A stretch of 64,000 bases of DNA from Tubiluchus corallicola (lineage: Eukaryota; Animalia; Priapulida): assembly GCA_030141605.1 (NCBI GenBank), contig JAQGDQ010000038.1, forward strand, positions 372,001 to 436,000, in the 5' to 3' direction. The translations under genes and the position numbers were made by a program. Positions 44,284-50,633 of this stretch are shown piece by piece; the first letter of the stretch is position 1, and each line of letters starts with the position of its first letter. The notes under the pieces were generated by a model. It saw nothing but the letters and a program-made list of their open reading frames with translations, ran no database searches and was not told the origin of the DNA.

Positions 44284-47200
44284 CTATGTTTTGCAATTGT
44301 GGCAATACTTGAAGTCCGGCCACTTGATGGCGCTCCTCTTTCTACGTAAAACAGGCGGCAACGGTGGTGGCAAATAGTCTGTTTTGGCCACTCGCGCATT
44401 TACACCCCGAGTAACCGGCCGAGCAACACAGCTAAACAAAACAAGCAATATTTAAATAAAATAAATGTGTAATGTTGAAGATATATTGACATTTTACAAA
44501 CATTCTGGGTTTTCCCTAATAATAAAGATAGTTCTGAACACACATGTGCTTAAGCACTGCATCAGAGTGATATAAATAATTATATTGCAAGGCTCAAATG
44601 AACGTGAACACCAACCTTAATCCTATAAACTCGTACGAATATGAATGCAGCTTTAAAGCTTAGAATTAAGGCATTCATGCTGGTATAAAAGTAGTTTCAA
44701 ATTTACTGCTTAAACGTAATGAGTAATATGATTCTAGCTTTAAAGCCACGGGTTCAGATAAATGTGAAAACTGTTTTATAAACGTAAATGGATTTTTAAA
44801 GCGTGTGACGTGCAGGCAACAGAAATGAATTCATTGTCAAACTTGCTCTACGGCATTTTAAACTGTACCAAAGCACCATGCACACATGCAGTGCAGGTTG
44901 AGCACGCACAAAAAGAAAGTCGAAGTCGTAAAATGTACTAAAAACTCTATATTAACGTTCGAATACCATTATTTGTTTGGATAGCACAATAGTAGTATTA
45001 ATTGTTGTTATCCTTAGTGTAGCAATACAATGTAATTTCATTTTGTAAACTTGCTGACGCTCTGCAACTATAGCCGTCGCACACGAGCCAAAATCTGTGT
45101 GCAGCAATCTGTGTGCTGCTGACTCACCAGACTAAGCGCTGATTTATCAATTTTGCGCACGCTTATACACTTTTTGCAAAGCCAGTAGAAAGCTACTGGC
45201 AGTTCCAACTTCCAATAAGACAAAGTTACTATGTAAGTTCTAAATTAAAATCTTGTAAATCTAAAAATAGAAGTTTTAACCCCCTTCCTACCAAAAGAGA
45301 ATAGAATCATGCAGATGCTGCCATTCTTGGCGCTGAAAGCAGAAAAAATCACACGGCAAAAATGTGATAAACGTGTAAAAACAAGTTAAACAACTACAAT
45401 CAAAATAATAAATTAGTTTCTGGTGTTAGATTATAGAATCAAGTAAATATTTAACCAGGCTGTAACAAATAGTGCATTATTCTCGAAATTGTCACTCCAC
45501 CGTAGCAGATGTGACAAATCGCTGCCATTAGAATGCATGTGGTGACTGCCAATAGTAAGTAATTAATGCTCACAGTCAGCACATTCGACAGCACATTCGA
45601 AATTCACAAGATCAACTTTTATATGAAGATGGGTAATTAGTACTAATTACTCGGATGCTAATGCAACGAACAGCGTACATGTACTACGTGCAATAACAGA
45701 GAGACACATGCAGCTGATATTCGAAATAACTATCTAGTCATACAATGCACAAAAGTTTAGTAATTTAGACTTGCCAAAGAGAGAGAAAGAGAGAGAGAGA
45801 GAGAGAGAGAGAGAGAGAGAGAGAGAGAGAGAGAGAGAGAGAGAGAGAGAGAGAGAGAGAGAGAGAGAGAGAGAGAGAGAGAGAGAGAGAGAGAGAGAAG
45901 AGAGACAGAGAATTAAAAGTTTGCCTGCAATGTACGAAGTTTTGACAAGAAGGTTACTTTAACTTTCCTGTGGTCAGTTTAAACTTACATTATTACTGTA
46001 ACCTGTTCTTACTTACCTGCAAGCTGATTTACTGTAATATTGACCAGTGGGACATATTTCTTCAAATGGGCATTTACATTTACAGTGAGTTGGGTCCCAT
46101 CTTTGCCTTTCTGTACAGTAGTTTGCATCTTCAATGTTGGGACAGATGCACTGACAGTCTTTGTAGATCTGAAACACATTAAAAAAAGTTGAAGTTTTAG
46201 GCATTATGTTAATCACGTTTACTCGGTTATTTTACTGAAACTTTTATTTTAGACAGTTTTTGCAAGAGTTCAGTATTTACTGACTCGCACATTGTAAACT
46301 TGAGTGGCTGCTCTTAGTCAATGTGTTGCTCTTTTCCTGCTTTACCAATTTTAGTCAGAAATATTCCGGAAAAATTGCAATTTCTACAATTTAGTTTTAC
46401 AAACTTTCCTTGAATTCTTTTTTATAATTGCATGAAAAATAAAGCTCTTGCAACCCATTTATTGTGAAGTCCATAACAGTCATCGCGCGACATAGACATT
46501 GCAATTAAAATCATATAGATTTGTATATTAAGTTGCAGAAAGTATAGATGCACAAGAACAGAGAGCGATCCACTAGGAGCCTAGACAAGTTACAGTTTCC
46601 AAAGAGTCAATGACATAGGCGAAGGTTGCAAAATAATAACCTGATACGATGTACAGTCTTCTGGACTCTTCCTGCAAAGGCAGTCACATCGAGTATGGTT
46701 TTGCAATGTCAAAACTTCTAAACCTTCTGGGATAAAATAGGAAGCACCGTATGTTGGATATCTCACTTTATACACCTATATGAAACACAAAATATTTAAT
46801 TAGAATGACAGTGCCGGGAATAATAGTCTAGTAGCTAACGTTAACGAATTTTCGTGGTCCATATGAATGATGACGAGAGCGGTGATGAAGCACAAAACAA
46901 TGCTGAATGCTCTACAAATGTTCGTTGTTAGTACGTTATATAAAGCATCTTGCAAAAAAACAGTTTATTAGTTATGACTAAATTAAATGACGTGTCTCTT
47001 TAAATTTGAAAGAAATGTCAAATTTGCCCCAGTCATTGAATTAAAATTTGTCTTAGTCCTATTACTCCTACGTGACTCTAATTCCTTATTAACTTGTGAC
47101 ACTTTGATACATGCATGTCATATACATAGCCATTATTATGCATACATAATTACATGACTTAATAGTCAAACAACCACCACAACACACACACAACCACACC

Positions 47201-50200: not shown

Positions 50201-50633
50201 ATATATATATATATATTAATGTATAACGAGTTAATGTAGTAAATACTTAATTGAGCCAGTTGTAAAAATTGATCAAACTAAATATGTACGAAATTTGATA
50301 GCAAAATTCTTACAAACGCGGAACCACTCATTGTACACGTACCTTACGTGGAGGCGGCATTGGTTCGTAACTGTGCGCTTGTATTTGTCCAAATGCTGCC
50401 GAAGACATGTCATTCTGGTCTGTTGTTGACTTCCAAGGGTTAGCGGTCTTGATGAATGACTGGTGGATCTCTTGGTCGATAAATTCAGGCTCCGTCCCAT
50501 ACACATTTACCTCATCATTGTTGGTGTTAACTCTAATGGAACTTGTGTCAACTCTAGACGAAACTCTGCAGACGACAGTGTTGAAAGTTAACAAGCTGCA
50601 CACTACTATATATAATAAAAACTGAGCAGCCAT
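44284..50633 (-). CDS. PDGF/VEGF-related factor (PVF) with CBM14 chitin-binding exon and CXCXC tail, about 456 aa, eight coding exons
   Basis: Exons 50633-50343 (signal peptide MAAQFLLYIVVCSLLTFNTVVC), 49961-49850, 48775-48572 (CBM14), 48076-47945, 47490-47294 and 46775-46641 (cystine knot CQPR...WPPCTELHQCGGCC...CKP...HTRCDC, all 8 Cys), 46168-46017 (CQCIC, CKCKC) and 44431-44284. All are GT-AG, phase-compatible and sum to 1371 nt. The last exon and the inclusion of the CBM14 exon are predictions. Confidence 0.88.
45778..45905. repeat. (GA)n microsatellite in the last PVF intron
   Basis: About 120 bp of near-perfect GA repeat; explains the ERERE ORF. Confidence 0.98.
48572..48775 (-). CDS. 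Peritrophin-A / chitin-binding type-2 (CBM14) domain exon of the PVF gene
   Basis: 204-nt phase 1-1 exon (TTCTTTCGACAG acceptor, GTATAA donor) encoding TTPIPTIRPKHFVCPKRNGYFPDPNDCAAFYQCSNRTPFRKTCSKGTLYDSKRKICNHASAVKCKTK. Cys spacing is C-x12-C-x5-C-x9-C-x12-C-x7-C, with the GYFPDP.DC..FY.C and C..GTLYD motifs. Confidence 0.87.
49262..49451. mobile_element. Small MITE (about 190 bp) in the PVF intron preceding the CBM14 exon
   Basis: Inverted termini CGTTTACGTAG(CA)TGCGGATGC and GCATCCGCA(AA)CTACGTAAACG, with internal TGCGGA/CCGCA repeats. Confidence 0.7.

Follow-up and report, generated by a model that had tools for sequence, protein, structure and literature searches.

Can a growth factor of the PDGF/VEGF family carry a module of a chitin-binding family, and would such a module tether the ligand to chitin? 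The question is raised by a minus-strand gene in a stretch of 64,000 nucleotides (the whole of the DNA analysed, hereafter the window), in which an exon encoding a CBM14 module lies between the pro-region and the cystine-knot exons of a PVF. According to a family survey (PMC10328876), ligands of the PDGF/VEGF type owe their positioning to accessory parts that bind matrix, and invertebrate PVFs have no known unifying role. At the level of our gene model, the domain arrangement is real and unusual, in a family for which positioning by accessory modules is already known.

The gene extends from 50633 to 44284 in eight exons and encodes a 456-aa VEGF-C-like PVF model. Every intron is GT-AG (381–1585 nt), and GC content is 0.38–0.52 in exons and 0.27–0.36 in introns. 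With exon 3 included, 4 of 36 splice-site combinations gave one open frame with a single terminal stop, and one of these four reproduced the 456-aa product proposed in an earlier, sequence-only reading of the locus; the open models range from 453 to 464 aa and are distinguished only by slight in-frame shifts of the acceptors of exons 4 and 5. With exon 3 left out, 4 of 36 combinations were likewise open (385–396 aa), and the 456-aa model minus this exon is a 388-aa product with the frame kept. The alternatives at 50348, 49976, 47941 and 47488 were rejected as splice sites because they disrupt the frame. The exons are as follows.

50343..50633, minus strand: exon 1, aa 1–97; ATG, hydrophobic N-terminus and acidic pro-region
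49850..49961, minus strand: exon 2, aa 98–135; pro-region segment, phase 1 at its end, with no Pfam match and nothing informative in the PDB
48572..48775, minus strand: exon 3, aa 135–203; phase 1-1, a short Pro/Thr-rich lead followed by the six-Cys CBM14
47945..48076, minus strand: exon 4, aa 203–247; acidic linker, net charge -7, without a dibasic or furin-type site
47294..47490, minus strand: exon 5, 197 nt, aa 247–312; N-terminal part of the PDGF/VEGF domain, containing six of its eight cysteines
46641..46775, minus strand: exon 6, aa 313–357; remainder of the PDGF/VEGF domain (C342, C344) and beginning of the Cys-rich tail
46017..46168, minus strand: exon 7, aa 358–408; BR3P/silk-homology repeats
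44284..44431, minus strand: exon 8, aa 408–456; basic tail (net charge +8), in which RRKR at aa 437–440 forms a furin-type site; then the stop

ATTAAA/AATAAA signals lie downstream of the stop, from 44158. Two introns contain repeats: a long (TC)n microsatellite in intron 7 (about 45778–45910) and, in intron 2, an inverted repeat (49262–49451; 27-nt arms, 85% complementary and separated by 136 nt, plus an inner pair of 15 nt) that looks like a small MITE and for which blastn gave no further copy in the window.

The growth-factor part was recognized at exon level. Our Pfam scan covered eight exon-bearing frames, five of which gave no significant match. Exon 5 alone matched PDGF at 35.3 bits (cut-off 27), and exon 7 reached 14 bits for CXCXC, just below the cut-off of 15; of the Pfam domains expected from the sequence-only reading, CBM_14 and PDGF were therefore recovered above cut-off and CXCXC was narrowly missed. 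All 32 PDB sequences matching exon 5 at E ≤ 0.001 belong to the PDGF/VEGF family, and the ESM Atlas returned PDGF clusters at a score of 0.87, which serves as a lead only. The knot has all eight cysteines (C257, 280, 286, 289, 290, 301, 342 and 344), the first five of which align with VEGF-E, and under the standard numbering of cysteine roles both interchain cysteines are kept. Measured against the family signature P-x-C-V-x3-R-C-x-G-C-C, the Pro, the Gly and the cysteines are retained, with Thr in place of Val and Gln in place of Arg. Exon 5, at 197 nt with phase 1 in and phase 0 out, has the same length and phases as VEGF-A exon 3; both of its in-frame acceptors (47490 and 47514) read AAG, not CAG or TAG.

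The Cys-rich tail encoded by exons 6–8 (CX8CXCXC, CX10CXCXC, CX10CXC) amounts to about 2.5 BR3P repeats. At the other end of the protein, hydropathy alone places all eight of the most hydrophobic windows at the N-terminus, the highest at aa 1–15, and a signal peptide at about aa 1–22 is likely. Two other resemblances were set aside: a presumed likeness between exon 2 and the PDGF propeptide was unsupported (no Pfam match; two irrelevant PDB matches, E 0.6), and a match of exon 7 to the chitotriosidase CBM14 (PDB E 0.29) was discarded as cysteine-driven chance. A 16-residue C-terminal peptide with two cysteines and no Pfam match follows the RRKR site (44284–44334, minus strand), and furin-type cleavage would either free this peptide or leave it disulfide-linked. 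By the definition given in part of PMC10328876, the modelled layout is that of an ancestral VEGF-C-like ligand, plus an inserted CBM14.

The inserted module is a complete six-cysteine CBM14, as the sequence-only reading had claimed. Pfam CBM_14 aligned over its full length (1–53/53; 52.7 bits, cut-off 22.1, E 4.8e-14), and the cysteines, C149 to C199, are spaced CX12CX5CX9CX12CX7C, for comparison with CX15CX5CX9CX12CX5-9C reported for EHEP (PMC10619976). Exon 3 matched four PDB sequences at E ≤ 0.001, namely a chitinase, EHEP, a mite allergen and chitotriosidase, with the nematode chitinase 6G9C being the best (E 5e-9). A second CBM14 pattern is absent from the window, and exon 3 and its flanks are unrepeated there. 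Single-sequence AlphaFold2 modelling of the module gave a mean pLDDT of 55.8, which is unusable for the fold.

A role as a chitin tether is plausible, but the sequence of the module itself weakens the case. In the alignment with the chitotriosidase CBM14 (6SO0), Pro451, Leu454 and Trp465 are replaced by Ser179, Thr182 and His193, and these three are described as high-impact binding residues, Trp465 being the strongest (PMC5459812). The Avr4 residues Trp100 and Asp102, whose loss is reported to abolish chitin binding (PMC6128652), correspond to Ile190 and Asn192 when position is counted from Cys5. EHEP and Der p 23 are described as having peritrophin-A domains without chitin binding, and the residues used for chitin as varying across CBM14s, not conserved (PMC10619976). 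Across five alignments, the two chitinase modules and the squid beak protein (7BWE) carry Tyr, Trp or Phe at the site of Trp465, and the EHEP domains carry Ala, Leu or Gly; the Der p 23 alignment ends before this site. The His found here is intermediate. A squid chitin-binding protein has Thr at the Leu454 position, as exon 3 does, and the Leu454 change is therefore not fatal by itself. The earlier proposal of a chitin-tethered ligand thus stands for its architecture, CBM14 plus PDGF/VEGF plus BR3P, which gene structure and Pfam support, whereas storage on chitin is made doubtful by Ser, Thr and His at key residues and by a net charge of +12.

That charge (pI 9.9; the hevein-like hairpin carries a KRK cluster) would fit glycosaminoglycan binding about equally well, and because the +12 exon adjoins a -7 linker, polyanion binding and internal contact are real alternatives. 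In the first of these, exon 3 is spliced in but its chitin binding has been lost, and the module serves as a basic retention device for heparan sulfate or another polyanion, replacing the heparin-binding exons of the VEGF-A type. The charge, the loss of Trp465 to His, the non-chitin-binding precedents of EHEP and Der p 23 (PMC10619976) and the reported binding of hyaluronan by the chitotriosidase CBM14 (PMC5459812) all point this way. Against it, His remains aromatic, the residues used for chitin vary among CBM14s and the +8 tail may already provide basic retention, and we consider this account rather unlikely, if the most credible of the alternatives.

The reading we prefer, as a best guess that could readily prove wrong, is that the PVF is held on chitin or a similar GlcNAc polymer by its CBM14 module. 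The module would be a matrix-retention device with a role like that of the VEGF-A heparin-binding exons, holding the secreted dimer on an extracellular polysaccharide for which cuticle chitin is the leading candidate. A disulfide-linked dimer would present two modules, and the resulting avidity could offset a weak His site. No RxxR or dibasic site occurs between the module and the knot (aa 190–309), so the CBM14 probably stays on the secreted dimer; an Arg-Arg pair is created at the exon 2/3 junction. The module would accordingly be expected to remain attached after furin-type processing and to be lost only on cleavage of the linker by an extracellular protease. A chitin-avid dimer would gather at the boundary between body fluid and cuticle, and the tethered form could focus PVR signalling where exposed cuticle meets body fluid, at wounds or moults. 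Accessory matrix-binding domains are described as shaping VEGF gradients (PMC10328876). For the receptor pathway, available descriptions report that Drosophila Pvf1/Pvr is required for epidermal wound closure (PMC3634835), that Drosophila PVF signalling guides haemocytes (PMC6366919) and that oyster PVF (CgVEGF) signalling moves haemocytes (PMC12468279).

A module N-terminal to the knot might also act in cis. Here the CBM14 would fold onto either the acidic linker or the knot, keeping the ligand latent until proteolysis, much as the CUB domain of PDGF-C/D keeps its ligand latent. The adjoining +12 and -7 segments agree with such a contact, and removal of a propeptide is reported to be required in VEGF-C/D (PMC10328876). 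Yet the contact is deduced from position and charge, and latency is compatible with tethering, the two not being mutually exclusive; as a separate explanation we regard it as improbable.

Both the preferred tether and these alternatives assume that exon 3 is part of the ligand transcript. The exon had been described as in frame with both neighbours, and this was borne out: its 204 nt begin and end in phase 1, and the eight-exon model is open across exons 2, 3 and 4. The symmetry of the exon, and the in-frame skipping that it allows, had not been part of that description. At 0.46, its GC content exceeds that of the introns on either side (0.34 and 0.36). Its splice sites had also been called good, which is true of the acceptor (CAG; rank 2 of 95 AGs by a crude hand-set score) but not of the donor (AAG/GT), which is the weakest of seven in the gene and ranks fifth of 39 GTs downstream of the acceptor under a small matrix trained on only six sites. 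The frame of exon 3 has no Met, and if the donor is not used a stop follows five codons downstream. Between exons 2 and 4 there are six stop-free symmetric cassettes of at least 60 nt, five of which start at the exon 3 acceptor, and the 204-nt one alone has all six cysteines. The other five introns yield 10 chance symmetric cassettes (63–132 nt), so symmetry alone is cheap and it is the domain match that carries weight. We infer the exon 2–3 and 3–4 junctions from this phase, splice-site and GC evidence, and exon 3 is very probably included in at least some transcripts. That it lies outside the ligand, being usually skipped, or used as a last exon by readthrough of the weak donor (giving pro-region plus CBM14 and no knot), or part of a nested transcript, is an unlikely account. 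In its favour, the frame does survive skipping, the donor is weak and intron 2 holds eight short ATG-started frames, five with a phase-1 GT; but an unused exon would hardly retain a full 52.7-bit domain, six cysteines and matching phases, intron 3 has no AATAAA or ATTAAA, and by eye none of the intron 2 frames makes a convincing signal-peptide exon.

Optional inclusion of exon 3 is plausible, and its gain by exon shuffling is likely, the pattern being that of one whole domain, in phase 1 at both ends and on the same strand, set into a phase-1 site between pro-region and knot. Skipping would then yield a diffusible form, comparable to what is seen with the heparin-binding exons of VEGF-A. More speculative than the tether itself, and less likely than not, is the extension in which the symmetric exon is a switch between a diffusible PVF and a form held on cuticular or microbial chitin, by which exposed chitin would directly localize receptor tyrosine kinase signalling to sites of wounding, moulting or infection.

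Homologue searches contributed little on conservation. Word-based searches among longer proteins gave one candidate and no significant match for the CBM14 exon and no candidate for the PDGF exon; since even the constitutive PDGF exon found no relative, these searches are insensitive and uninformative about conservation. Among metagenome contigs, none of 199 pattern matches to the CBM14 exon was confirmed. Exact look-up of U1A and of the exon 1 peptide found neither (0 of 2) and is equally uninformative about conservation. The ESM Atlas, queried with single exons, returned clusters that were PDGF-type only or CBM14 only, all with scores below 0.9 and none with both. A CBM14–PDGF/VEGF fusion is undescribed in the parts of the papers searched, and databases may already contain proteins with this architecture. 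In the family survey PMC10328876, 'chitin' occurs zero times in the main text, and chitin, peritrophin and CBM do not occur in six supplements; that survey itself states that its protostome coverage is thin.

The neighbouring genes bear on which chitin could be concerned. Outside the PVF gene, the window contains:

8032–8772, plus strand: U1A, intronless
10088–10162, minus strand: tRNA-Thr(TGT)
21069–22400, plus strand: F-box gene, a long single frame
about 29735–33121, plus strand: enolase
about 40740–43434, plus strand: ninjurin, multi-exon, with a Pfam match of 27.2 bits (cut-off 26) in its last exon and a long hydrophilic N-terminal part
about 55430–59737, plus strand: PAGR1-like gene, with a 416-aa Ser/Pro/Gln-rich frame

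The ninjurin and PVF genes are convergent, with about 850 nt between their stop codons. Ninjurins act in injury responses, and the linkage may be due to chance. Runs of (ATTC)n/(AGTC)n lie upstream of ninjurin (about 40157–40280). Upstream of the PVF start, a degenerate array of about five units, spaced 190–360 nt apart and with tRNA B-box-like cores (51777–53162), possibly represents old SINE-derived tandem copies; ARAGORN called no tRNA in it.

At E ≤ 1e-80, U1A had 1223 relatives, of which 120 were listed; within those, all organism-named rows were protostomes, the best organism-named identity was 76% and two further records were 98% identical. In a 65-row tree (P0001–P0050 plus 14 further rows), the window grouped with Priapulus (94/87), and this grouping fell within a starred set of ecdysozoans. 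A second tree, limited to named sequences (28 rows), gave 90/89 for the Priapulus grouping, which was not starred, and did not reject lophotrochozoan (p-AU 0.36) or arthropod (p-AU 0.26) placements. Both trees are without a deuterostome, and the placement rests on this one gene. The source animal is probably a protostome and may be a scalidophoran. If this weak placement is right, the chitinous settings first suggested narrow, with shell, radula and chaetae being less likely than a moulted cuticle. Chitinous spines, scalids and cuticular structures are described for scalidophorans (PMC4021568; PMC8588615).

A PVF with a lectin-family module would have a new means of being positioned. Binding to chitin would put blood-cell and epidermal signalling in direct connection with the exoskeleton of the animal itself or with the wall of a fungus; binding to heparan sulfate in its place would make this a CBM14 re-used as a retention module. 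For now the weight of the finding is that of one gene in one genome.

Among known ligands, the closest in layout are VEGF-C, VEGF-D and the cnidarian VEGF-C-like ligands, which by the available description (PMC10328876) have in common with our model a long N-terminal pro-region, an eight-cysteine knot, a C-terminal BR3P region and interchain cysteines. The present gene differs from them in having a CBM14 inside the N-terminal region, about 2.5 BR3P repeats where they have 3–5, and a basic RRKR tail after the repeats. Drosophila Pvf1-3 and oyster CgVEGF are likewise protostome PVF ligands and act in blood-cell migration and wound closure; the partial descriptions compared make no mention of a chitin-binding domain in them. 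With other CBM14 proteins (6G9C, chitotriosidase 6SO0/5HBF, tachycitin, Avr4, 7BWE, EHEP and Der p 23), the module shares the six-cysteine spacing and a full-length Pfam match, but it is strongly basic, has His at the Trp465 position and is joined to a receptor tyrosine kinase ligand, not to a chitinase or matrix protein. Accessory modules for retention or latency are familiar within the growth-factor family, as in the retention tails of PDGF-A/B and the CUB domains of PDGF-C/D. The heparin-binding isoforms of VEGF-A likewise carry a splice-optional accessory module that sets matrix retention, as reported in part of PMC10328876. In contrast to these VEGF-A and PDGF modules, the one modelled here is a disulfide-bonded domain of a lectin family and lies N-terminal to the knot.
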